Part shown: positions 32,941 to 45,727 of the stretch, piece by piece
Numbering within the stretch: position 1 is the first letter of the stretch
Layout: every line of letters starts with the position of its first letter
Source of the DNA: Candidatus Shapirobacteria bacterium
GTDB taxonomy: Bacteria > Patescibacteriota > Microgenomatia > UBA12405
DNA: 64,000 nt
Assembly: GCA_009885205.1 (NCBI GenBank)
Contig: VFLE01000055.1
Span: forward strand, 11,236 to 75,235
Reading direction: 5' to 3'
Translations under genes and position numbers: made by a program
Notes under the pieces: generated by a model
What the model was told of the DNA's origin: nothing
Databases searched by the model: none
The model's input: the letters and a program-made list of their open reading frames with translations, nothing else

Positions 32941-35900
32941 TTAGTTTTCCTCCTTGACTTCAACTTCTTCTAACACAGGTTCTGGTTCTATTTCACCATC
33001 GGGAGAAATATCGATAACCAGTCCTGCTAATTCTTTGGTAAGAACTTTAAATGATTCGGGGATATCAGGCTCGGGAATAGGAGTGCCTTTAATAATAGCT
33101 TGAAAAGCCCGAGTTCGACCTTCAATATCGTCAGACTTGATAGTCAACATTTCTTGGAGAATGTGGGCAGCTTGATGGGCTTCAAGAGACCAAACTTCCA
33201 TTTCTCCTAACCGTTGACCACCCATTCTGGCCTTACCACCTAAAGGTTGTTGAGTGACCAGGGAATATGGCCCGGTAGATCGAGCATGAACTTTGTCATC
33301 AACCATGTGAACCAGCTTAAGAATATAACCAACACCAACAACTGTTTCTTGTTCGTAGGCATCACCAGTGCGACCATCATAAAGCTGAGTTTTTCCGGTG
33401 ACTGACAAACCAGCGGCTTTTAGCTCGGAACCAATTTGATCTTCGGTGTATTTTTCAAAAACAGGGACGGCATAATGTTTGTTTAATTTTAGTCCGGCAG
33501 CGGCCAAGGTGACTTCAAGGATTTGACCAAGGTTCATACGAGCCACGACCGAGAGAGGTGACATAACCAAATCAATGGGAGTACCATCGGCCAAACGGGG
33601 CATGTCATACTCGGGCATGATGCGACAAATAACACCTTTATTCCCGTGTCTTCCGGCAATTTTGTCACCTTCTTGGATACGACGAATTTGGGCAACATAA
33701 ACCTTGACCATTTTGTTGACACCAGGATCGAGTTCGTCTTCTTGTTCTTTGGACAATATTTCAACCTTGATGACGACTCCCCCTTCTCCATTGGGAACGC
33801 GAAGTGAGGTATCTTTGACTTCACGGGCTTTTTCTCCAAAAATGGCACGAAGTAATCTTTCTTCGGCACTAAGTTCTTTTTCACCACGAGGTTCAACTTT
33901 ACCAACTAAAATGTCATTAGGACCGACGGTAGCGCCAATCATGACAATACCATCTTCGGTCAATTTAGCCAACTCATTTTCGGAAACATTGGGAATATCT
34001 TTGGTCAATTCTTCGGAACCTAATTTAGTTTCAACCACATTAGCTTGATATTCATAAATTTGAATATTGGTTAAAACATCTTCTTTAACCAGTCTGTCAG
34101 AAATTAAAAATGAATCTTCGTAACCAAGACCATCAATAGAGGCGTAGGCAACTAGTAAATTAGTACCAATGGATAATTCACCATTATCAGTAGAAGGACC
34201 ATCAATAATAACTTCACCTTTTTTGACAACATCGCCAACATTGACTAAAACTTTTTGATTATAACAAGTACCATAGGGTGAAGTACGTTCAAATTTTGCG
34301 GTAAAATAGGTAATATCATCGACGATTACTTTGTCGGCGTCAACATAAGAAACGACACCGGCTTTGGTGGCTTGAACTGAACGGTGCATAGCAGTAGCAA
34401 TTTCTCGCTCCATACCAGTTCCAACAATGGGGGCTTGGGGTTTGACCAATGGTACGGCTTGAGTCTGCATGTGAGAACCCATTAGGGCCCGAGTAGCATC
34501 GTCATGATCGACAAAAGGAATTAGAGAAGCCGAGGAACCAATGATTTCGTTGGGAACCATGTCGACATATTCAACATCATCAATGTAACCTTCGGCAAAT
34601 TCGCCTTGAAAACGAACTGGTACCCAATTTTGAGTAATATTATTTTTGTCATCAACACTAATACTTAAATTAGTAGTCTTGTGATTAAACTCATCTTCGG
34701 CGTCCAAAAAGACGATATCGTCACTAATCGCTAGTTTTTTACCATTTTTAATAATTTTTCTAAAAGGGGCAAGCAAAAATCCATATTTATCGACCTTGGC
34801 GTACAGGGCTAGATAAGTAACCAAACCGATGTTGGGACCTTCGGGAGATCGAACGGTACAAATACGACCGTACTGGGAGGCATGAACGTCACGAATCGAA
34901 AAGGCGGCTCGCTCACGAGTTAAACCACCAACACCAACGACAGTCACCCGACGGAGTAAATCAATTTCGGCTAAAGGATTAGTTTGGTCTAAAATAGCGG
35001 ATAATTGATTGCTTCTAAAAAAAGTATTGAGAGAGGAAATCATGGGTTGTGGGTTGATCATTTGACTGGGACTGGGTTTTTCTTTGGTAGAAAGAAGAGA
35101 CATTCTCTCCTTAACCATTCGCTCGAACCGAGCCATAGCGGGTCTGAGGGCAATTTGGGCGACGATTTCACCAGCACGACGTAAACGACGATTGGCGAGT
35201 GAATCGATATCATCAAATTGTTTGGTTTCACCTTTTTGTAATTTGATCAAATGTTTGAGAGTGGCGATTAAATCTTCGGATCGAAGTACCCAATTTTCTC
35301 GATTGGTATCATCAAAATTAAAACCAAATTTTTTATTGACTTTGTGACGACCAACAAAACCTAATTCATAGGTTCGCAAATCAAAAAAACGATCGTTAAA
35401 AAATTTCTCTGAATTCTCCAAAACTACTGGTTCGCCGGGACGCATTTTGCGATAAAATTCGAGCAAAGCTTCTTCCTTGGTTTTGGTCGGATCGGCAGAA
35501 ATAGTACTATTAATATATTCACCAAGTTCGTTTTGAATTTGTTTGTCGGTATACCCGGTTAAGGCCCGAAGTAAAACAGTAGCCGGAACTTTCTTTTTTC
35601 GGTCAATACGGGCAAAAATAACTTCTTTTTTGCCAACAAAAAATTCTAACCAAGAGCCGCGGACAGGGCGAATTTCGGCATTACAAAGATTTTTACCAGT
35701 ACTGTGATCAATTTGAGCGGTAAAATAAACGCCAGGGGAACGAACTAATTGATTGATGATACCCCGTTCAATACCGTTGACAATAAAAGTTGCTTCGGGG
35801 GTCATGGTGGGCAAGTTTAGGAGGAAAACTGATTCTTCTTTGACTAAACCAGTCCGTTTGTTGGTTAGTTTGGCTTTGACAACAATGGGAACAGTATAAT

Positions 35901-36138
35901 TTAAGCCTTTGATTTTGGCGGTGGCAGGGGAAATGGTGATTTCGTCAAAAGTAATTTCACCTAATTCGAGAAGCCAGTTATTGCCTGTGTAGTCGGAAAT
36001 TGGAGAAATGGAGCGGATGGTTTCAATTAAATCTTTTTTGAGGAATTCGGCCCAGGATTCTTTTTGAACAGCTAAAAGGTCAATGGTCGGGAGGGAGGAG
36101 TAATTTTTACCCCAGTTGGTTCTTTTGGCGGAAGACAT
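32941..36138 (-). CDS. rpoB: DNA-directed RNA polymerase beta subunit
   Basis: 1065 aa (compact). Rif cluster, fork loop and GDKxxxRHGNKG-type motifs. Confidence 0.95.
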   Translation of the reverse strand: MSSAKRTNWGKNYSSLPTIDLLAVQKESWAEFLKKDLIETIRSISPISDYTGNNWLLELGEITFDEITISPATAKIKGLNYTVPIVVKAKLTNKRTGLVKEESVFLLNLPTMTPEATFIVNGIERGIINQLVRSPGVYFTAQIDHSTGKNLCNAEIRPVRGSWLEFFVGKKEVIFARIDRKKKVPATVLLRALTGYTDKQIQNELGEYINSTISADPTKTKEEALLEFYRKMRPGEPVVLENSEKFFNDRFFDLRTYELGFVGRHKVNKKFGFNFDDTNRENWVLRSEDLIATLKHLIKLQKGETKQFDDIDSLANRRLRRAGEIVAQIALRPAMARFERMVKERMSLLSTKEKPSPSQMINPQPMISSLNTFFRSNQLSAILDQTNPLAEIDLLRRVTVVGVGGLTRERAAFSIRDVHASQYGRICTVRSPEGPNIGLVTYLALYAKVDKYGFLLAPFRKIIKNGKKLAISDDIVFLDAEDEFNHKTTNLSISVDDKNNITQNWVPVRFQGEFAEGYIDDVEYVDMVPNEIIGSSASLIPFVDHDDATRALMGSHMQTQAVPLVKPQAPIVGTGMEREIATAMHRSVQATKAGVVSYVDADKVIVDDITYFTAKFERTSPYGTCYNQKVLVNVGDVVKKGEVIIDGPSTDNGELSIGTNLLVAYASIDGLGYEDSFLISDRLVKEDVLTNIQIYEYQANVVETKLGSEELTKDIPNVSENELAKLTEDGIVMIGATVGPNDILVGKVEPRGEKELSAEERLLRAIFGEKAREVKDTSLRVPNGEGGVVIKVEILSKEQEDELDPGVNKMVKVYVAQIRRIQEGDKIAGRHGNKGVICRIMPEYDMPRLADGTPIDLVMSPLSVVARMNLGQILEVTLAAAGLKLNKHYAVPVFEKYTEDQIGSELKAAGLSVTGKTQLYDGRTGDAYEQETVVGVGYILKLVHMVDDKVHARSTGPYSLVTQQPLGGKARMGGQRLGEMEVWSLEAHQAAHILQEMLTIKSDDIEGRTRAFQAIIKGTPIPEPDIPESFKVLTKELAGLVIDISPDGEIEPEPVLEEVEVKEEN

Positions 36139-36202
36139 CGCTAAATTTTAATTAATAAAAAATAGACGAGTTATGTTCCAACTGCTCGCCAAATGTAGAG
36201 CA

Positions 36203-36230
36203 TTATATCCCTTATTATTTATGAGTACAA
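36203..36230 (-). promoter_or_regulatory. Candidate promoter for rpoB (TTGTAC-N16-TATAAT)
   Basis: The minus strand reads TTGTACtcataaataataagggaTATAATg, about 60 nt upstream of the rpoB ATG. Confidence 0.35.
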
Positions 36231-36250
36231 TAGGTCAAATTTTATTTCTA

Positions 36251-37147
36251 TTAAAAATCGAATTCTTTAGTAATTTTTTGGGTCTTTTTATCAACATCAA
36301 ACCAATTAAAAGTGGCGGTATGGTCATCTTTAATTTCATAAACATGAATCACCCATGCAGATTTGTCGTCTGTATCGTGGTCATACTCAATAATAGTATT
36401 TGGAACTGTTTTTCGATAATTTATGACTTCAGGAAGTTGAGAAACTAAATACATTGCTGTTTGTTGATATGCAAGTTCAGCCATGTCAATGAATTTAAAG
36501 GTGGAGAGGATTTGGTTAAAATCAGACTGAAGTAAAGTTTCTGCAGGATATTTGGCAATCGTAATAATATTATTTTTATAAAACAAATAATAGGTGATGC
36601 CTGTACCATTCCCCTGCCATTCTAAATATTTTGCTGGATAACCTCCAATAGTTAGACCATTTGTTGAGATAACTTTCCCTCCAATTCCTGAAGGATCGTC
36701 TTCTATACTCTTTAGTTGTTTGGCAAAATATTCTTCTAAAGTCTGATTGGCTGTATTTGGACTAACCCATATTTCAACTTTTAATTCATTGCCTTGCATT
36801 GAATAGCCTTTACGATTAGTTAAATCAACTGGACTCATAAGTGAAAGATATAATGTTTCACTGTTATTTGTAGGAGAATTTTCAGTTAGAGAATAATTTT
36901 TAGGATAATCAAAATTAAATCCAAAATCTGTATTTATATATTTGCCGTTATAATTTACGATTGGTAATGGAGTTGTAATTGCGGTTGTTTGGGATAAATC
37001 TACAACTGGATTGGTTATTGGGGTAATAGTTGAAATTTCAGTAGTTTTTACTGATTGGCGGCCGAGGAGAAAAACTCCGGTGAGAAATAAGACAAAAGCG
37101 AGGGAGATTATAATTAAATTTAAATAATTTGTTTTTGGTTTGTCCAT
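36251..37147 (-). CDS. Membrane-anchored hypothetical protein, paralog 1 (signal-anchor + extracytoplasmic domains)
   Basis: The start is taken as MDKPKTNYLN (37147), which aligns with paralog 2 MDKPKPNYLN. The track ORF begins at an upstream TTG. One N-terminal TM helix is followed by an ILSTFKF motif. Confidence 0.6.
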   Translation of the reverse strand: MDKPKTNYLNLIIISLAFVLFLTGVFLLGRQSVKTTEISTITPITNPVVDLSQTTAITTPLPIVNYNGKYINTDFGFNFDYPKNYSLTENSPTNNSETLYLSLMSPVDLTNRKGYSMQGNELKVEIWVSPNTANQTLEEYFAKQLKSIEDDPSGIGGKVISTNGLTIGGYPAKYLEWQGNGTGITYYLFYKNNIITIAKYPAETLLQSDFNQILSTFKFIDMAELAYQQTAMYLVSQLPEVINYRKTVPNTIIEYDHDTDDKSAWVIHVYEIKDDHTATFNWFDVDKKTQKITKEFDF

Positions 37148-37188
37148 ATTAAAAGAGTAACATTTTTTGAAGGACAATAGGTCAAATT

Positions 37189-38181
37189 TTAGGGATTGAC
37201 CACTGTTTTTTGAAGAGTCTCAGGATTGATTGAATACAGATTTGTAATATTTTGGTCGTAAGGAATTTCTTTAACATTAAGTTGATTTGTTTTTGACCAA
37301 TTTAAACAATATGAAGATTGAATTCCAGAAAGTAATGTTTTACGTTGCTGTAGGTCAAAAATGGTGTAACCCCAGTAACCGGAAGTGCCGTATTCTATAC
37401 ACGCAAATTTTTTATTTGGTGAAAATATCAATTGACCTGGATAATCAACTGGCTTTTTGTCAAAGATATATTTTTTGTTGTTAAAAATAAAATATGCAGA
37501 GTAATCTTTGACGTCAATTTGGAGTTCCTTGCTATTTGGTAAATTAATTAAATTTACTATATTTTCGGTGAATTTAAAGGTAGAGAGGATTTCCTGATAT
37601 ATATTAATATCATTAGAATTTATGACACCTTCTTTTGGTTGAAGTGTTAAAACGTAGATATTGTTACCGTTCTTAAAATATGTAGAAAATACCGAAAAAC
37701 CAGCAGCATTATAGTTTTCTTGACGTTGAATACAATTTAATCCAGCTATGACAGTTTTTTTGGTTGAAATAACAGCAATTGAGGATGTACCTTCATATTC
37801 AGTTGAGTTTTGTTTATCTTTTTTTGACAAATACTCCGAAATTGTTTTTGAATTGTCTTCTGTAATATCGATAAGAAAGATCGATTGATTTGGTGAAGAA
37901 ATATACACATAATTTCCAGTTTCTAAAAGAGCTTCTTTGTTTGCATTCCAACTTGATGGATAATCAAAGGAAAAAATATTTTTACTGTCAGTATATGTTT
38001 TCCAATTTTGGATTGGATCAGTGACACTGGTTGGTATTGCCGTTGTTTGGGGTAAAACGGTGATGGGGTTGGGAATGGTTTTTACTGACTGACGGCCGAG
38101 GTAGAAGACACTGACAATAAATAAAACAAAAGCAAGGGAGATTAAAATTATATTTAGATAATTTGGTTTGGGTTTGTCCAT
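37189..38181 (-). CDS. Membrane-anchored hypothetical protein, paralog 2
   Basis: 330 aa. N-terminus MDKPKPNYLNIILISLAFVLFIVSVFYLGRQSVKT is about 80% nt-identical to paralog 1. It shares the EILSTFKF motif. Confidence 0.6.
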   Translation of the reverse strand: MDKPKPNYLNIILISLAFVLFIVSVFYLGRQSVKTIPNPITVLPQTTAIPTSVTDPIQNWKTYTDSKNIFSFDYPSSWNANKEALLETGNYVYISSPNQSIFLIDITEDNSKTISEYLSKKDKQNSTEYEGTSSIAVISTKKTVIAGLNCIQRQENYNAAGFSVFSTYFKNGNNIYVLTLQPKEGVINSNDINIYQEILSTFKFTENIVNLINLPNSKELQIDVKDYSAYFIFNNKKYIFDKKPVDYPGQLIFSPNKKFACIEYGTSGYWGYTIFDLQQRKTLLSGIQSSYCLNWSKTNQLNVKEIPYDQNITNLYSINPETLQKTVVNP

Positions 38182-38196
38182 ATAAAAAGAATAGCA

Positions 38197-38993
38197 CTAA
38201 TTTATTGATCTTTTGGTTTTAATATTTAAATAATTTTTTGAGGAAATGACGGATTTTGGGGATTTGGATTCGATTTCGGTGCGGGCGACTTTGGCAACAT
38301 GACCGCCATCATTGGCGTCTGTTTTTAAGTTTGAAAATGTTTTAGAGTCTCTATCCTTGGTAAATTTGGTGGTGGAAGCTTCACCAAGCATGGTTAAAAT
38401 TAATTCGATATCATCCATGTGGTCACGTAAATTTTCGCGTTTTAGACGGGGACAAAACCGCTTTTCATTATTTCATTGGTTAATATGGCAAAATCAATAT
38501 TGCGTTTGACTCCCCTATTTTTCCATTCATCAGTTAAGGTATGACGAACAGCAATACCCCGAGCCTGTTTGTCAATCCAATCTTGAGGATAACCTTTCTT
38601 TTCGTAAATAGCTTTCATCCTGTCCATGGCCAATTCGGGATTTTCGATTTCTTGAATTCGCTCATGTCCAACTAAAGCTAGCCATTGTTTGAATGGTTCG
38701 GCTTTGGGTGAAGGAATTGTTTGAATTATACGGAGTAAAGTTTTAGTATCGGCACAATCGGATAATCGTTTTCTACCATCAGATGCGATTAATTTTAATC
38801 GTACGATATTCTCGTACACTTGGCTGAACCCTTCTTTGTTTAGTTTTATTTTTAAGTCACTCCAATATCGTTTTGGGATGTTGCTGTCGGATAATATTGA
38901 GATCACATCAATAACAGAAAACCACCAGTCATTTTTGAAATAAATTTTTCGAACTTGTTTTCCTTCAAACAAAGCGATTTTGTTTGATTCCAT
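38197..38993 (-). pseudogene. BRO-N / DinD (RhuM-like) family gene interrupted by a frameshift
   Basis: The 183-aa ORF (38442..38993: FEGKQVRKIYFKNDWWFSVIDVISIL ...) stops at TNEIMKSGFVPV*. The downstream frame reads ...KRENLRDHMDDIELILTMLGEASTTKF... (38197..38418+). The frame switches in an A-run near 38461-38470. Confidence 0.55.
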
Positions 38994-39050
38994 AGCTAAT
39001 ATTACCGAAGTAATACCGAAGTGTCAATAGAACAAAATAGGTCAGACTTA

Positions 39051-39971
39051 TTACAGAAATTTGAACGAGGAAATTACAAAGTCATCGTCGCCTTCCAGGG
39101 TAACGATATATTTTTTGTCGGGAGAAATCGTTGTTTTAATATCACCAAAAGAATGAACGACAGTGTTGTCGTAAACGGAAATGGTGGTGACTGATTCACC
39201 ACTGGTACAGGATTCTTGTTTAAAGGGAATCTTGTTACCGTTGACCGAGGTCGCTTCGACGACATATTTGGCAGTAGTAGGACATTCAAATTGGTAGCCA
39301 TATTTGATATCCTTGTATGTTTTGCCAACAGTTTTTACCGTAGGTTCGGGAGTAACACAGGCTTTTTCGGTACAGGCAATTGTTAAGTTAGGGGTGCACG
39401 AACAAGTGTTGCAAGAATCGGTTGAGGGGAATGACTCACCAACAATATATTTTTTGTCATTGAGTTCACAAAACTGGGAAATTATTTTGGTGGGGGTGGG
39501 CCCCGCCGTTGCGGGATTGACAGAAGTGGGTGCTGGCTCTGATTGATTTGAAAAAAGATTATAAATTATGGCAGAGACGACAACCATAAATAAGGTCAGA
39601 GAAAAATAAAAAAGGTATTTGAAAAAATTTGAGGGTTTATCTTGAATTGGTTCTGATGGAAAATAAATTGGGGGGACTACTGGTTCTTCTTTAACAATGG
39701 GTTCTGAGACAATGGCTTTTTCAATGACCTTTGGAGGGATAATTTTGGGTGAATCTGTTGATATTAATGACTCAGGTTTTGAGACTTCAAATATAGGGTT
39801 TGGTTCTGATGCGACAGGAACAATTTCTGGTTCTAAATTAACTTTGGTTATAACGGGATTTACAACAAGGGGAACAACTTCTTTGTTTTCGACTGGTGGA
39901 GTGAGTGAGGAGGCATATTTGTTTAAAATTTCTTGATATTGTTGTTGCAGTTGATCATCATTATTGGGCAT
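39051..39971 (-). CDS. Membrane protein with a Pro-rich cytoplasmic N-region, one TM helix and a Cys-rich extracytoplasmic domain ending ISSFKFL
   Basis: 306 aa with at least 10 Cys in the C-terminal domain. The C-terminal S[ST]FKF motif is shared with paralogs 1 and 2. Confidence 0.5.
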   Translation of the reverse strand: MPNNDDQLQQQYQEILNKYASSLTPPVENKEVVPLVVNPVITKVNLEPEIVPVASEPNPIFEVSKPESLISTDSPKIIPPKVIEKAIVSEPIVKEEPVVPPIYFPSEPIQDKPSNFFKYLFYFSLTLFMVVVSAIIYNLFSNQSEPAPTSVNPATAGPTPTKIISQFCELNDKKYIVGESFPSTDSCNTCSCTPNLTIACTEKACVTPEPTVKTVGKTYKDIKYGYQFECPTTAKYVVEATSVNGNKIPFKQESCTSGESVTTISVYDNTVVHSFGDIKTTISPDKKYIVTLEGDDDFVISSFKFL

Positions 39972-40024
39972 ATAAATACTATGACATCTTTACAAAAGAT
40001 ATGCAATAAACTATTATTTTTATA

Positions 40025-40495
40025 ATGAAGAAGATATTAATTTTGTTTGGATTAATAATGGTTTTTAGTGTCAATAATGTTTTGGCGGGTGGCTTTAATA
40101 TGACTTCAATTGGGCAAGTAGACACCTCGGGTCTACAAATTTCCCAGTGGTGGTATACCTCGGGAAACCCAACCTTTCGGGGCGAGGCAACATCAGGGGC
40201 AGAAGTAATTTACGAAATTGATGGGGTGGCATTACAAATTAATGCCGATAGCTCGGGTGATTGGGTGTTTACACCCCAATCTGCTTTGTCGAGTGGTGAT
40301 CACAACATTGTAATTAAAAGTGGCGAGAGTGAAATAAAGTTTGTATTAACAATTGGAAATGAAAATGTAAATTGGTCGACAGTGGAAAAAGGTAGTGGTG
40401 GAGTTTTGCCGGCAGCTGGGACAGCTTGGCCAACAATAATAACATTGGTTGCGGGAGCTGTGATGTTGGTTTTGGCGAAAAGAATGATAATATAA
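40025..40495 (+). CDS. Secreted Ig-like protein with a sortase-type C-terminal sorting signal (LPAAG + hydrophobic segment + KRMII)
   Basis: 156 aa. N-terminal signal peptide MKKILILFGLIMVFSVNNVLA. C-terminal VLPAAG-TAWPTIITLVAGAVMLVLA-KRMII. Confidence 0.55.
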   Translation: MKKILILFGLIMVFSVNNVLAGGFNMTSIGQVDTSGLQISQWWYTSGNPTFRGEATSGAEVIYEIDGVALQINADSSGDWVFTPQSALSSGDHNIVIKSGESEIKFVLTIGNENVNWSTVEKGSGGVLPAAGTAWPTIITLVAGAVMLVLAKRMII

Positions 40496-40498
40496 GCG

Positions 40499-41572
40499 AT
40501 GAAAAAAGTTTTTATAAAGACTTTTGGTTGTGCTCAAAATATGGCTGATTCGGAGCGAATTAAGGCGTATTATTGGGAAAAGGGATTTGCAGAAGTTGAT
40601 ACTTGGCAAAAGGCTGACGAAGTAGTCATCAATACTTGTATTGTACGAGAATCAGCCGAAAATCGTGCTTACGGATTGATTAAAAATATCCAAAACTTCA
40701 AACTTCCTGCCTCGCCGGCAGGCAGGCAAGCTTCAAACATTAGGGTGGTGGTGACGGGTTGTGCGGTGGGGGCTTATGGTAAAAAAGATATTAAAGGAGT
40801 AGACGAGTGGGCCAAGATTGATAAATTTTTGGTGTGGGAACCGATAAGGTCTAACAAAAAGGCAGCCTTAATTTCTATTTCGACTGGCTGTAATAATCAC
40901 TGTACTTTTTGTATTGTGCCTCGCGCTCGCGGCAAAGAAGTGTCAAAAACATTGGCGACGGTTTTGGCCGAAGTTGACAGGGCAATTGAAAGTGGTTTTA
41001 AAGAAGTGGTATTAATTGGACAAAATGTAAATAGTTATGGTTCTGATTTTAATACTGATTCGTGGGTACATATGGGTAAAAAGCGGATTAAAAGTCGGTT
41101 TCCGGAGCTTTTGGAAAATGTGGCCAAACGTAATTTGGACAAAATTTCGTTTATATCGAGTAATCCCTGGGATTTTTCGGACGAATTGATTGAGACAATA
41201 GCTAAACATAAAAATATTGATAGATTAATTCACCTCCCCTTTCAATCGGGCAACGATGAAATTTTAAAGAGAATGAACAGGGCCTATACTAAACAAGAAT
41301 ATTTAGAGTTAGTACAAAAAATAAAGTCGAAGGTAAAGGATGTCAGATTTAGTACAGATATAATAGTAGGATTTCCGGGAGAAACTGATGAACAGTTTTT
41401 GGATACGGTCGATGTCTGTAAAAAGGTGGGTTTTGAAATTGCTTATATTAATAAATACTCGCCACGCTTGGGCACCGTCTCGGCAAAAATTTTTGAAAAT
41501 GATATTCCGATGAAGATAAAGAAGGAAAGATGGGTGATATTGGATCAGTTGGTGAATAAGAAATTACCTTAA
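40499..41572 (+). CDS. Radical-SAM methylthiotransferase (MiaB/RimO-like), lacking the C-terminal TRAM domain
   Basis: 357 aa. An MTTase N-domain with Cys in FGCAQN, NTCIVRE and TGCAV. Radical-SAM CNNHCTFC. It ends right after the radical-SAM core. Confidence 0.7.
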   Translation: MKKVFIKTFGCAQNMADSERIKAYYWEKGFAEVDTWQKADEVVINTCIVRESAENRAYGLIKNIQNFKLPASPAGRQASNIRVVVTGCAVGAYGKKDIKGVDEWAKIDKFLVWEPIRSNKKAALISISTGCNNHCTFCIVPRARGKEVSKTLATVLAEVDRAIESGFKEVVLIGQNVNSYGSDFNTDSWVHMGKKRIKSRFPELLENVAKRNLDKISFISSNPWDFSDELIETIAKHKNIDRLIHLPFQSGNDEILKRMNRAYTKQEYLELVQKIKSKVKDVRFSTDIIVGFPGETDEQFLDTVDVCKKVGFEIAYINKYSPRLGTVSAKIFENDIPMKIKKERWVILDQLVNKKLP

Positions 41573-42469: not shown

Positions 42470-42667
42470 CTAAACTTCACTAAATAGAGCGCGGCGATAG
42501 GTTGACTTTTTGCTGTCAAAAATAAAAATACGACCACACTTGCAAGTGGCAGTAGTCTGACCTCGAACCTGAGCTTTGACAGCCTTGGCTAAAGGTTCAC
42601 TGCAACCAACACAACGACCCTGGGATAACAACCATGCTTGGATAGGAGAGATAAGATTTTTAAACAT
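42470..42667 (-). CDS. Small zinc-ribbon protein
   Basis: 65 aa with CVGC...CKCG. It lies between ruvX and mltG. Confidence 0.4.
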   Translation of the reverse strand: MFKNLISPIQAWLLSQGRCVGCSEPLAKAVKAQVRGQTTATCKCGRIFIFDSKKSTYRRALFSEV

Positions 42668-42674
42668 TGACTAA

Positions 42675-43043
42675 TTATAAACTAATTGCCCGATTTAAGA
42701 TAATAGCAGCTGAAACTGAATCTAATTTTTTACTATTTTTGGGACGAATTTTACTAGCTTCGATGGTGGAAACGGCTTCTTCGACGGTTTCAATTGGAAT
42801 ATTGGTTGCTGTTTTTAATTTGTTGACAAAGGATTTTGTAACAAGAGCAAATTTGCCTTGAGACATGCCAACAAAAATTTTATTGATTTTATAATCGGTA
42901 ATTATTTTTTTTATTTGAATTATTAATTTATCATTGTTGTCGATTTGAGGGAGGGTAAAAATAATATTGTTGATAGTGTAGGCTAGACCGACTCGTTTGG
43001 TACCATAATCTAAGCTTAAGTAGTTCATATTAAAAATCGACAA
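42675..43043 (-). CDS. ruvX: Putative pre-16S rRNA nuclease / Holliday-junction resolvase-like YqgF (RuvX)
   Basis: 122 aa. LSLDYGTKRVGLAYT is the YqgF signature. Confidence 0.75.
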   Translation of the reverse strand: MSIFNMNYLSLDYGTKRVGLAYTINNIIFTLPQIDNNDKLIIQIKKIITDYKINKIFVGMSQGKFALVTKSFVNKLKTATNIPIETVEEAVSTIEASKIRPKNSKKLDSVSAAIILNRAISL

Positions 43044-43761
43044 TGCGGGCTTTAATAACTAAACGACGTAAATAGGTACCGGGCGGGGTACAAGTAATAA
43101 GGGTCAAATATCGACCATCAAAACGTTGTTCGAGGACAGATAGATCGGTAGGGGGGACTTCGTACATTTCTTCGACTAAATATTTATATTCAACGCTGTC
43201 GAAATTAATCAAGATTTCGTCACCTTGTTTTAATTTATATAAAGTAGAAAAAATAGTTAAATATGACTTGGGGTTAAAAAACTGAGGCAAAACGGAATGA
43301 CCAAAAATAACTGGCGAACCAAATTGACCAGGGAGGGCGGTTTGAGGATATTGGATGAGACTTTTTTTGAGATCTAAACTACCAACTTGGACCACGGCCG
43401 AGTCAATTTTTAGTTTGGGGACGGAAATTAAATATTCCGTTTTTGAGACAGTGGGATTTTGGGAAGAATTTTGTAAATTGTTTTGATCGTCAACAAACCA
43501 GTTTGACAATTGAGTAAAGTCGGTACCACTTTCACCTAAAATACTACCAGAATTGGCATATCGAGTAGAAAGAGGACTTAAGACTTGATTAAATTTGATT
43601 GAATATTCGATTTGATATTGTAAGATTGGTACAATGGCTGACAAAAAAAATAAAACACCAATAATTAAAAACGAAGAGGCAATTATTTTTTTGTGCTGAG
43701 GGGATAGCTTGGGTCGAGGTCGAGGAATTTTTACTTCCTTTTTGACATAAATATAGCCCAT
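43030..43761 (-). CDS. Sortase family transpeptidase
   Basis: 243 aa. N-terminal TM anchor, His in VIFGHSV, the catalytic TLITC motif and a downstream Arg (RRLVIKARI). Confidence 0.7.
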   Translation of the reverse strand: MGYIYVKKEVKIPRPRPKLSPQHKKIIASSFLIIGVLFFLSAIVPILQYQIEYSIKFNQVLSPLSTRYANSGSILGESGTDFTQLSNWFVDDQNNLQNSSQNPTVSKTEYLISVPKLKIDSAVVQVGSLDLKKSLIQYPQTALPGQFGSPVIFGHSVLPQFFNPKSYLTIFSTLYKLKQGDEILINFDSVEYKYLVEEMYEVPPTDLSVLEQRFDGRYLTLITCTPPGTYLRRLVIKARIVDF

Positions 43762-43762
43762 T

Positions 43763-45727
43763 TTAGTTTTTAATGATGATATTGATTAAGTTAGATTTGA
43801 CAGGTAATCGGTGAAGTAAATTAAAAAACCAAAGAGAATTGTTTAAATCATGTTGATAATATTTGGGTAAGGTATTTAAAATTGATTTTAGATCTGATTC
43901 TTTTTTACCGACTAACTTTAATTTGAGTTGATCAATATTTATCAAAGGATTAGCAACACCAGTTAAAGTTAGTTGACCAGAATTATAATTTAAAGTTACT
44001 TTAGCCGAATTTTTGTCTAAAAGAGTCAGACTCTCCCGCTTGGGGAAAAAAGTGGAAATTATATTTTGTTTTTGAAGTAAATCAAAATATAAAAAACTGA
44101 CCTTGGAAGAAAGTTGTAAAGATAAAACGTCGGCTTCTTCCCCAACTTCACGATTAAAAGTCGTTTTTTGATTTTCATAGACCATGGTTGAATCAAGAAT
44201 TGAATTTTCAGTTGATTTTTGGGAATTTATATCATTTTTGGCCTGTTGTTTTAACAATTCTTTGGCTGATTCTAAAACCTTGGTTTTGTCAGCTTGAGTG
44301 ACAACCGCGATTTGATCGCGAGTACCACCAGTAAAGGCTTTGGTTGACTTGGCCAATAAATTGGGGTCACTTTTGATGGTAAAAGCAATATTTTCTGATA
44401 AATTATATTCTGGCCCAATGATTTTAGCAGTCACGGCTGCCTTGACCTGACCCATAGTGATGATGCCAGTATCTAAATTAGAAGTACTGGCAGGGAGCAA
44501 AATGTTGTTGGTGGTTTCAAATTCTTTGCCAGAAGTATCGGTAATAACGAGGCCTTTGTTAACGGTAATTGATCGATCGAGTTTATTAAAAACGATGACT
44601 TCACCTTTGGCTTTTTCCCCGACTTCTTTTTTGCCAGTAGTAGAGGAAGAAGTACCGACACTTAAATCAAAAGTTTTGGTGGTGACATTGGAGGCAGGAT
44701 CTGGAGTAAAAGCAAAGATTTCGCTAAACTCGGTCGGGTTTTGATAGATGGTTAAATCGACCCTAGAAAAATAAAGCGGTAAAACCGGTAAAAATGGCAA
44801 TAAAACTAGGGGTAAAAGATAAATGTAGTTAAATTTTAATTTTGGAAAAGAAAAATTATGTAGGAACGCATCATGATGCGTTCCTACGTTTGAATTTTGA
44901 GGTGGCTCTTCGAGAACAGGATTGACTTCAACTGGTGAATCTTCTGCTGTAAATCCGAGAGAAGTGGCATCTATCTCTTCTGTGGTATCGGAAACAGGAA
45001 TAACATCGATGATGTTATTAGTAATTGAGGTGGCGGCGGGAGTAATTTGTTTTTTGACAGTATCGACAAAAATTTGGGCCAAAGATGAAGGATCAAGAGA
45101 AATAACATTGGGTAAGTGTAAAAATGTTTCTAAGTCTTGGCGAGCTAACCAGTTATAATTTTTTAAATCGTCAATAATTTCGGGGGAATAACTACCAATA
45201 ACAATTATTTTGGGTGGTAGGGCCGAGGTAAATTCAAGAGCTGATAATTGTTCTTCAAATTTGGAAACGGAAAAATCGGCCGAAAAATCGGCTGTAAATC
45301 GTTTTTTAATTTGACCTAAATAGACTAGAGAAAGATGATAATGTTTGGGACTAAAATAAACTAAAAGATAAGAACCGGGAAAAGAGTCATCATGATCATA
45401 AGATTCAATAAAAGCATCGTCATAACTAACAAAACCAAGGGGGTGGAATTTTAATTTTTGACAAATAGATTTGAGATTGGTTAGTATTTGGGGGGAAATA
45501 CTACCATCTGGTCCCACCCAATTTGGTGGAACAATAAAAGCACAATTTGAAGTTTCGTCATTATTTTGGGTAGAAATAGAGGTATCGATGGCTTTTAAAA
45601 GTGAGTCGGGGTTGTCAGAACTCCATTCTATTTCTTGACCAAGACTGATGATTTTATTGGAAACCAGAGAAACCTGAGCGGTATCAGATGTGATGGAAAT
45701 TAACCAATAAGCATTGTCGTGCATCAC
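43763..45727 (-). CDS. Hypothetical 654-aa ORF. An actin-like (PilM/FtsA-like?) N-region and a TM + extracytoplasmic C-region are joined through an in-frame REP-like palindrome, so it may be two genes.
   Basis: Residues around 280-290 (GTHHDAFLHNF) are the translation of palindrome 44860-44887. Immediately after comes a hydrophobic segment LKFNYIYLLPLVLLPFLPVLPLYF. There is no ATG between the palindrome and the TM. Confidence 0.4.
   Translation of the reverse strand: MMHDNAYWLISITSDTAQVSLVSNKIISLGQEIEWSSDNPDSLLKAIDTSISTQNNDETSNCAFIVPPNWVGPDGSISPQILTNLKSICQKLKFHPLGFVSYDDAFIESYDHDDSFPGSYLLVYFSPKHYHLSLVYLGQIKKRFTADFSADFSVSKFEEQLSALEFTSALPPKIIVIGSYSPEIIDDLKNYNWLARQDLETFLHLPNVISLDPSSLAQIFVDTVKKQITPAATSITNNIIDVIPVSDTTEEIDATSLGFTAEDSPVEVNPVLEEPPQNSNVGTHHDAFLHNFSFPKLKFNYIYLLPLVLLPFLPVLPLYFSRVDLTIYQNPTEFSEIFAFTPDPASNVTTKTFDLSVGTSSSTTGKKEVGEKAKGEVIVFNKLDRSITVNKGLVITDTSGKEFETTNNILLPASTSNLDTGIITMGQVKAAVTAKIIGPEYNLSENIAFTIKSDPNLLAKSTKAFTGGTRDQIAVVTQADKTKVLESAKELLKQQAKNDINSQKSTENSILDSTMVYENQKTTFNREVGEEADVLSLQLSSKVSFLYFDLLQKQNIISTFFPKRESLTLLDKNSAKVTLNYNSGQLTLTGVANPLINIDQLKLKLVGKKESDLKSILNTLPKYYQHDLNNSLWFFNLLHRLPVKSNLINIIIKN
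44860..44887. repeat. REP-like perfect palindrome, family B (GTAGGAAC-gcatcatgatgc-GTTCCTAC), inside an ORF
   Basis: 28-bp perfect inverted repeat. Confidence 0.9.

Follow-up and report, generated by a model that had tools for sequence, protein, structure and literature searches.

Proteins known to adopt the PsbP/Mog1 fold (PsbP and CyanoP, DcrB, LpqN, Apa, Mtc28 and the DUF1795 proteins) serve either as chaperones or, on the outer face of the membrane, as binding or scaffold proteins. We analyzed a 64-kb stretch of DNA, hereafter the window, from a metagenome-assembled genome (MAG) of Candidatus Shapirobacteria (Microgenomates; candidate phyla radiation, CPR), in which three genes upstream of rpoB encode membrane proteins with a domain of this type. 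We refer to these genes as par1 (36251..37147), par2 (37189..38181) and cys, the Cys-rich gene (39051..39971). Our reading of the locus, which we put at about three chances in four, is that the three proteins are homologous and carry a PsbP/Mog1-fold domain, that cys is the founder, that the slot between cys and rpoB is a place of gene birth and death whose genes are leaderless units, and that a DinD gene arrived there with its own promoter.

The likeness to the Pfam family PsbP_2 (PF18933) starts at the W-x-T-Y...F-x-F-x-Y-P-x-x-W hairpin and extends through the helix and strand of the C-terminus, with ILSTFKF at the end of the profile. The two par proteins are divergent from that family, with scores below its cutoff, and carry in addition a conserved membrane anchor at the N-terminus and unrelated domains at the C-terminus, while the copy in cys retains about 90 residues and is joined to a Cys-rich module. 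With PsbP, CyanoP and PnsL the par proteins share 13–18% sequence identity. CyanoP is a lipoprotein, whereas the par proteins have a signal-anchor helix and no lipobox. No photosynthesis genes were found in the window or in the related loci, and the host clade is not known to be photosynthetic, so that photosystem II or NDH is unlikely to be the partner. DcrB (6e8a), LpqN (6e5d), Apa (5zxa), Mtc28 (4pws) and BT_1490 (3hlz) have the same fold on the same side of the membrane and offer a functional analogy in envelope biogenesis, lipid or protein binding, and adhesion. They show no detectable sequence similarity to our proteins, however, and are lipoproteins or secreted, in contrast to the transmembrane helix of par1, par2 and cys. 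The DUF1795 proteins (SciW/EagT6, Tsi3 and TplEi) belong to a fold family that appeared among our structure matches, but their chaperones are cytoplasmic, their immunity proteins are periplasmic, and they serve the type VI secretion system of diderms, for which no genes were seen in the window.

Three predicted membrane proteins with a shared domain

On the minus strand, read 5' to 3', the order of genes is cys (39971..39051), a split BRO-N/DinD gene (38993..38197), par2 (38181..37189), par1 (37147..36251), rpoB (36138..32941) and rpoC. An earlier note on this DNA had placed the cluster after rpoB, but since every cluster gene is on the minus strand, the cluster lies upstream of it. That note also saw the cluster as wedged between rpoB and a tRNA-modification gene. 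rpoB does border it on one side, but on the other flank of cys a Big_13 gene (40025..40495) separates it from miaB (40499..41572), and both of these genes are transcribed divergently.

The 298-residue product of par1 is a predicted single-pass membrane protein with an N-terminal anchor (MDKPKTNYLNLIIISLAFVLFLTGVFLLGRQSVKT), a PsbP/Mog1-like domain ending in ILSTFKF (residues 213–219) and a C-terminal domain of about 78 residues. Its start was corrected to the ATG at 37147 from the TTG at 37177. par2 encodes a 330-residue paralog with the same anchor, a PsbP/Mog1-like domain at about residues 55–205 that likewise ends in ILSTFKF, and a beta-rich C-terminal domain (229–328) modeled with low confidence. 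The two proteins are 35% identical over 231 residues (BLASTP, E 1e-26), and the first 105 nt of the genes match at 85 positions (81%). A 119-nt direct repeat (37044–37162 and 38078–38196, 82% identity) spans the 5' ends of the genes and the -10 box. The earlier note had thus been right to call them tandem paralogs with N-termini about 80% identical in nucleotides. It was also right that both contain ILSTFKF, with STFKF at residue 215 in par1 and residue 200 in par2, that the Cys-rich protein ends in ISSFKFL, and that an LPXTG motif is missing, as we found no LPxTG-like motif in any of the three.

Both paralogs have a helix at about residues 8–31, preceded by MDKPK. A lipobox with a lipid-modified Cys was looked for and not found; par1 has no Cys at all and par2 has none among residues 1–35. 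Different genomes keep the anchor sequence KPKTNYLNLILIS.AF.LF..G.Y.LGRQSVK, and this conservation suggests a specific partner within the membrane. We considered gene conversion as the sole cause of the 81% identical 5' ends and rejected it, as the anchor is kept at the protein level elsewhere (P0003, P0010, P0012, P0014 and L033).

The product of cys is a conserved 306-residue bitopic membrane protein. It consists of a cytoplasmic helix (YQEILNKYA), a Pro-rich linker, a transmembrane segment at about residues 116–141, a six-Cys module (168–205) and, at the C-terminus (approximately 214–306), a PsbP/Mog1-like domain that is shortened to some 90 residues and ends in ISSFKFL, with SSFKF at residue 301. 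In an alignment of 32 homologs, residues Y12, Q13, I15, L16 and Y19 and all six Cys were invariant and the transmembrane segment was conserved, while the Pro-rich linker was hypervariable. The N-terminal helix of cys (residues 1–22, 39905..39971) and of its orthologs in L002–L024 carries the invariant motif Y-Q-x-I-L-x-x-Y-A, which occurs, among all open reading frames (ORFs) of the window and of the 29 related loci described below, only in cys orthologs. The six-Cys module resembles the FnI, VWC and pacifastin modules. Pacifastin_I (PF05375) scored 26.3 bits on cys, just under its 27.9-bit cutoff, and homologs are pre-annotated with PF05375. Compared with pacifastin, VWC and fibronectin type I modules, both scores are below cutoff in Pfam; cys is a membrane protein of a bacterium, and the comparison does not imply that it inhibits proteases.

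We built an AlphaFold (AF2) model of par2 on 14 homologs. The model had an N-terminal helix (8–31), a confident core at about residues 55–205 with predicted local distance difference test values of 85–94, and a weaker beta-rich C-terminal domain. A Foldseek search with the core gave CyanoP as the best match (E 1.1e-6), followed by plant PsbP, PnsL, BT_1490, DcrB, Apa, Mog1, SciW and LpqN, with E values from 1e-6 to 1e-3 for CyanoP, PsbP, DcrB, Apa, Mog1, SciW and LpqN. The core shows the architecture of the PsbP/Mog1 superfamily, an alpha-beta-alpha sandwich that opens with a beta-hairpin at the N-terminus, has an antiparallel sheet at its center and closes with a C-terminal helix and the last strand. 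The remote-homology and structure check that the earlier note had called for thus ended in a PsbP/Mog1-type fold for the par2 core.

ILSTFKF is the most conserved stretch of the family alignment, with S200, T201 and F204 invariant. In the par2 model it forms the end of the C-terminal helix and the final strand, and the par1 copy aligns with the closing positions of the PsbP_2 profile. The PsbP/Mog1-fold domain common to par1, par2 and cys has S[ST]FKF as its last beta-strand, and this motif is found in all three proteins because all three share one fold. The domain hidden Markov model (HMM) matches par1 at 2e-36. It also matches cys orthologs, those of L023 and L012 along most of the length of the model and that of L011 at the start of the model. 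Pfam gave no PsbP_2 match for cys itself; one cys homolog is pre-annotated with both Pacifastin_I and PsbP_2, and hhalign linked the first hairpins of cys and the par families at 95.9% probability with only 23 columns aligned. NCBIfam held no meaningful match for par1, par2 or cys.

The family is large. The par-family profile matched 28,241 clusters at 50% identity with E <= 1e-3, and 6,536 with E <= 1e-10; many of these clusters hold 2–6 tandem domains. Four of ten sampled matches pass the PsbP_2 cutoff (P0197, P0205, P0222 and P0277), and the homologs P0005, P0010 and P0040 are pre-annotated with PF18933. Some members (L033 1642..2253; P0004 and P0007) have a four-Cys module between the anchor and the PsbP-like domain, with the pattern C-T-x-E-A-K-I-C-P-D-G-S-x-V-G-R-x-G-P-x-C-x-[FY]-x-P-C-P, which is distinct from the six-Cys module in cys. 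Shapirobacteria genomes hold members of the family at other places as well, beside UDG and RNase J or beside DeoC and transketolase.

A variable slot between cys and rpoB

We fetched 29 loci by the N-terminus of rpoB and compared their ORFs with those of the window; L033 was added to this set. The closest rpoB loci came from Shapirobacteria MAGs, L002 at 92% and L003 at 89% identity. Across Shapirobacteria the gene order sortase-ruvX-(65-residue Zn protein)-yceG-miaB-Big_13-cys-rpoB-rpoC-rpsL-rpsG is kept. cys sits directly upstream of rpoB in 18 of the 29 loci, in L033 and in the window; L027 and L028 are without cys and keep the rpoB context.

The sole variable part is the gap between cys and the rpoB promoter, which holds from zero to three PsbP-like genes and pseudogene debris. 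In the window the slot contains the two paralogs and the DinD pseudogene. L002 has three genes there, and L033 has three together with a pseudogene fragment that bears ILSTFKF. Two genes each were found in L004, L006 and L023, one in L005, one small ORF in L008, and nothing in L003 and about ten other loci. The slot genes of L004–L006 are packed 3–4 nt apart. An ORF of about 58 residues (MTPQDLRQIRLISKII...) stands in L002 (6610..6845) at the place of the window's DinD pseudogene. par1 has an ortholog in L033 (2846-3748), whose C-terminus matches and ends in ...MFDF. The fragment in L033 (2253..2846), a close relative, is a decayed PsbP-like gene between slot genes that still encodes ...ILSTFKFSES and the C-terminal domain, and 3' of it lie a motif-like copy, of the kind described in the next section, and a TGtTATTCT-N6-ATG promoter. 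The fragment documents directly that genes die in the slot.

The repeated motif and the rpoB promoter

Just past the three stop codons lies the sequence TGACCTATT (plus strand, AATAGGTCA), at 36229–36237, 37176–37184 and 39036–39044. The window contains 4 copies of it against 0.47 expected, and none of 100 shuffles reached 4. The earlier note had seen these copies downstream of all three genes, with coordinates that were 1–4 nt off. On the minus strand, the copies after par1 (TAAAATTTGACCTATTGTACT, 36224..36244) and after par2 (TAAAATTTGACCTATTGTCCT, 37171..37191) form a 21-nt repeat with 95% identity, while the copy that a motif search found after cys (cTGACCTATTttg, 39036..39044) is degenerate.

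The 3' half of the copy after par1, TTGTAC (36225–36230), is the -35 box of rpoB, 17 nt upstream of TATAAT (36202–36207), and the copy after par2 is a duplicate of the region around this box. When we aligned 22 rpoB upstream regions, the 3' half of the motif (TTGTAC or TTGTAG, and TTGC.. in other lineages) was the -35 box, always 17 nt from the -10 box. The sequence upstream of rpoB in L002, L003 and L033 equals the copy after par1. Where paralogs are missing, in L003, the intact motif comes directly after cys as part of the rpoB promoter; past the cys stop codon stand aaaTTTGACCTATTGTAGT, 17 nt, TATAAT and the rpoB leader. Copies of the motif stand after par-b and par-c in L002 and a motif-like copy ahead of slot gene 2 in L033, and L023 has independently duplicated its own 30-nt stretch from upstream of rpoB, with one copy on either side of its slot genes. 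The motif was not found beside par homologs elsewhere in the genomes, and the slots of L004–L006 hold no copies. Most simply, these copies would reflect tandem duplication of units with rpoB promoter-proximal sequence at their end; the idea of the motif as a recombination site received no further support.

Promoters and starts

A -10 box 6–8 nt from the start codon of operon-first genes, with no Shine-Dalgarno site, is the computational signature of leaderless genes (GeneMarkS-2 "group C"; PMC6028130). We observed this signature, with a spacing of 6 nt, at par1, par2 and cys, and with 5 nt at DinD, and the boxes are kept in orthologs. On the minus strand, the extended -10 box of par1 is TGtTACTCT (37154..37162), 6 nt before the ATG at 37147, and that of par2 is TGcTATTCT (38188..38196), 6 nt before the ATG at 38181. 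The pattern TGnTAyTCT-N6-ATG that the earlier note had reported ahead of both paralogs therefore matches, at 37145–37162 and 38179–38196. The cys promoter (39978..40006, minus strand) consists of a -35 box TTGCAT (40001–40006), a 17-nt spacer, TGtCATAGT (39978–39986) and 6 nt before the ATG at 39971. Upstream of cys in about 20 loci we found TTGCA(T/A), 17 nt, TGnGAATAT or TGnCATAGT, 6 nt (5–7 in a few) and ATG, and this fixed distance is phylogenetic support for a transcript that would begin at the ATG. In L002 and L033 the par genes have aaTGtTATTCTtttaWtATG in common. Transcription of par1, par2 and cys is thus predicted, from box spacing and its conservation, to start at the ATG.

The pattern TGNTANNNT-N6-ATG occurs 8 times in the window against 2.6 expected, in 7 of the 8 cases at ORF starts, and it is found at four unrelated genes outside the cluster (24369, 27641, 45724 and 47484). 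A loose Shine-Dalgarno 4-mer precedes only 6 of 75 genes, and upstream regions are A/T-rich. The leaderless arrangement and the lack of Shine-Dalgarno sites are a genome-wide habit and not specific to the cluster. A looser test, TAnnnT at 5–7 nt from starts, did not separate operon-first genes (15/32) from internal genes (15/43) because all upstream regions are A/T-rich, and we relied instead on the strict extended -10 pattern and on conservation in orthologs. No intergenic terminators were found on the gene strand between 36000 and 40200. A literature search returned nothing relevant on leaderless mRNA or Shine-Dalgarno use in Patescibacteria/CPR, nor on PsbP-like proteins in CPR.

Across the window, Shine-Dalgarno sites were almost absent, also within the ribosomal-protein operon. 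In many operon-first genes the ATG is preceded at 6 nt by a -10 box, frequently with the TGn extension, and further such starts lie at 42667, 51102 and 54871. The ORF listed with a GTG start at 45727 probably starts at the ATG at 45724.

The DinD/BRO-N pseudogene

Between cys and par2 lies a DinD/BRO-N-type pseudogene (38197..38993, minus strand; PADLOC candidate PDC-S13), present as the ORFs 38442..38993 and 38197..38418. Tblastn with the 275-residue homolog P0048 placed it in two frames with residues 181–192 (12 codons) lost, so that an internal deletion and a frameshift split the gene; the halves are 94% and 83% identical to P0048. Bro-N (PF02498) matched at 37.7 bits against a 25.6-bit cutoff (3.2e-9), and the earlier note's decayed BRO-N/DinD gene is thereby confirmed. 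PDC-S13 matched both halves (3.6e-77 and 1.6e-17) at positions 1–180 and 204–272 of one profile, and phrog_15286 also matched both. The intact ORF of about 273–280 residues was not found in the window copy.

More than 8,000 homologs cover the joined frame, most of them 273–280 residues long, and several phyla are represented at about 60% identity. The window gene aligns end to end with members of this length at 60–87% identity; it differs from them by the missing 12 codons and the frameshift, and it is unrelated to the three membrane proteins. At their source the homologs are named DNA-damage-inducible protein D, phage antirepressor or Bro-N protein. The closest homolog on a long contig lies away from rpoB, amid toxin-antitoxin and metal-resistance genes, and nucleotide homology to it (76%) sets in precisely with the TTGACA -35 box that belongs to the gene itself. 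This promoter (38999..39027, minus strand) has TTGACA, 17 nt, TAATAT and 5 nt before the ATG at 38993, and is the best promoter-like site of the region (10/12). Promoter and gene are kept together in L031, in an unrelated genomic context, and DinD was absent from all related loci compared. DinD is the sole element of the interval with mobile character, and it is now inactivated.

Neighboring elements

We also noted two features beside the cluster. Between the rpoB -10 box (36202..36207) and the ATG (36138), at the predicted 5' end of the rpoB mRNA, lies a 32-nt element, ACATTTGGCGAGCAGTTGGAACATAACTCGTC (36165..36196, minus strand). It is single-copy in the window and nearly invariant in 22 Shapirobacteria loci, with a possible 6-bp stem (GGCGAG/CTCGTC) around a conserved 14-nt loop, and its sole changes are wobble-compatible. 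No Rfam family matched it, a permissive scan of 36100–36300 gave only chance-level matches, and its single-sequence fold was unremarkable (z -0.67). One possibility is an autoregulatory RNA of rpoBC, another is an operator.

The product of the Big_13 (bacterial Ig-like) gene (40025..40495, plus strand) ends in ...GGVLPAAGTAWPTIITLVAGAVMLVLAKRMII, that is, in an LPxxG sorting-like motif (LPAAG), a hydrophobic/transmembrane stretch and a basic tail, KRMII. A sortase gene (43030..43761, minus strand) lies 2.5 kb away, and both are syntenic across Shapirobacteria. Given this C-terminus, the nearby sortase and the shared synteny, the two are likely a substrate/enzyme pair.

Discussion

The history that we propose for the locus runs as follows. 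cys would be the conserved founder, kept directly upstream of the rpoB promoter throughout the clade, and the gap between the two would be a birth-and-death hot spot in which PsbP-like genes duplicate, diverge and decay. The unit of duplication would reach from the extended -10 box 6 nt before the ATG through a copy of the rpoB -35 region, and because such units end in that copy, TTGACCTATTGT recurs after the genes. The DinD/BRO-N (PDC-S13) gene would have arrived with its own promoter and later become a pseudogene, and the genes would be read as leaderless mRNAs, as seems usual in this genome. All three proteins are predicted to be single-pass, N-in/C-out, with the PsbP/Mog1-fold domain displayed outside the cytoplasmic membrane.

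Several observations weigh against this account. The PsbP_2 scores of par2 (24.4 bits) and par1 (14.9 bits) fall below the curated 27-bit cutoff, and a profile search of PDB sequences returned nothing below E 0.6 and thus no PDB relative. A generic sigma-70 scan of 36000–40200 gave 17 sites, against 16.9 in shuffles. The motif copy ahead of par1 stands 12 or 20 nt from the -10 box, an unworkable distance for a -35 box, and this copied box is therefore probably a relic. Finally, the low G+C content (GC) of the paralogs, 0.31–0.32 against 0.38 +/- 0.04 for the window, leaves some room for transfer among related CPR genomes; two other window genes are lower still.

As to function, no catalytic signature was found in par1, par2 or cys. 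By analogy with characterized proteins of this fold, the domains most likely bind or scaffold envelope proteins or lipids and have no enzymatic role, and differences in specificity would come from the variable C-terminal domains of the paralogs. We infer that par1, par2 and cys may act as envelope-facing binding modules carried on a signal-anchor helix.

The earlier note had taken the cluster for a variable surface-protein cassette of foreign or mobile origin. On that view the whole interval would be an island left by a prophage or pathogenicity island, and there are reasons for it. A BRO-N/DinD gene is present, its homologs are spread across phyla at identities of at least 60% in unrelated contexts, it matches phrog_15286 and PDC-S13, the paralogs are low in GC, and slot content differs between relatives. 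Synteny has already largely refuted this view, however, since cys is core and syntenic in about 20 loci. Nor did the other signs of a prophage or genomic island appear. The neighbors are housekeeping genes, no integrase was found, no tRNA or other Rfam family was detected in the 64 kb at the gathering threshold, and par1, par2 and cys matched nothing in PHROG or PADLOC, DinD alone having a PHROG match. The paralogs belong to a very large family, their named homologs come from Shapirobacteria, and they share the promoter style of the host genome. The DinD unit is only about 0.85 kb long and has its own promoter. We therefore consider a foreign island very unlikely; the interval is an accessory cluster of an ordinary kind, in which a very common PsbP_2-like family has expanded within the lineage.

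Of the earlier note's other claims about the interval, several stood in part. The three proteins are, by prediction, single-pass membrane proteins with extracytoplasmic domains, and the paralogs vary from zero to three copies between relatives, so that "variable surface-protein cassette" describes them apart from the foreign origin. The BRO-N gene does behave like a mobile gene, but it is alone in the interval in doing so and does not mark an island. The leaderless-type promoters fit the geometry of leaderless mRNAs, but this is not a feature of the cluster. The comparison of the rpoB-miaB interval across relatives that the earlier note had proposed gave a divided answer, in that the gene frame and cys are conserved, the paralogs are not, and the proteins match no housekeeping family.

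The repeats invite another explanation, a dedicated array of cassettes, each made of a promoter, a PsbP-like gene and a 17–21-nt repeat, with recombination at the repeat by an integron-like mechanism or by Campbell-type integration of circles. The near-identical 21-nt repeat that closes par1 and par2, the motif that closes par-b and par-c in L002, the motif-like copies after genes in L033, the independent 30-nt duplicate flanking the slot genes of L023 and the range of slot copy number from 0 to 3 would all suit it. Ordinary tandem duplication copies the 3' flank likewise, however, and the motif amounts to no more than the rpoB -35 region. There is no recombinase gene in the vicinity, the slot genes of L004–L006 do without repeat copies, and par homologs elsewhere do without the motif. 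We regard such an array as very unlikely. We think it equally improbable that the locus is coupled to rpoBC, with cys as a membrane-tethered regulator whose cytoplasmic helix acts on the transcription machinery and the paralogs as alternative sensors co-transcribed into rpoB, since known anti-sigma domains are much longer than the 20-residue helix, rpoB retains a conserved promoter and leader of its own with any slot content as well as its context where cys is missing (L027 and L028), and small CPR genomes often conserve synteny without a functional link.

A related and unlikely idea is that the cys-rpoB junction is a dedicated site at which self-contained surface-module units are gained, duplicated and lost by recombination at the repeat. 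Each unit would comprise a leaderless extended -10 promoter, an anchored PsbP-like gene and a 17–21-nt copy of the rpoB -35 region. If this were true, these presumed episymbionts would have fast-changing envelope binding proteins that dock via the conserved anchor on a common partner such as the invariant cys protein.

On our preferred reading of birth and death beside a conserved founder, the importance of the locus is modest, and it reveals no new mechanism or foreign island. The near-absence of Shine-Dalgarno sites and the -10 boxes 6 nt from starts are useful for gene calling in CPR genomes and for the design of expression studies. CPR bacteria encode many uncharacterized membrane-anchored proteins, and one such family now has a fold, a recognizable signature that combines the W-x-T-Y...F-x-F-x-Y-P hairpin with ILSTFKF as terminal strand, and an estimated size of more than 28,000 clusters at 50% identity, together with a concrete locus where PsbP-like genes are born and die beside a core gene.

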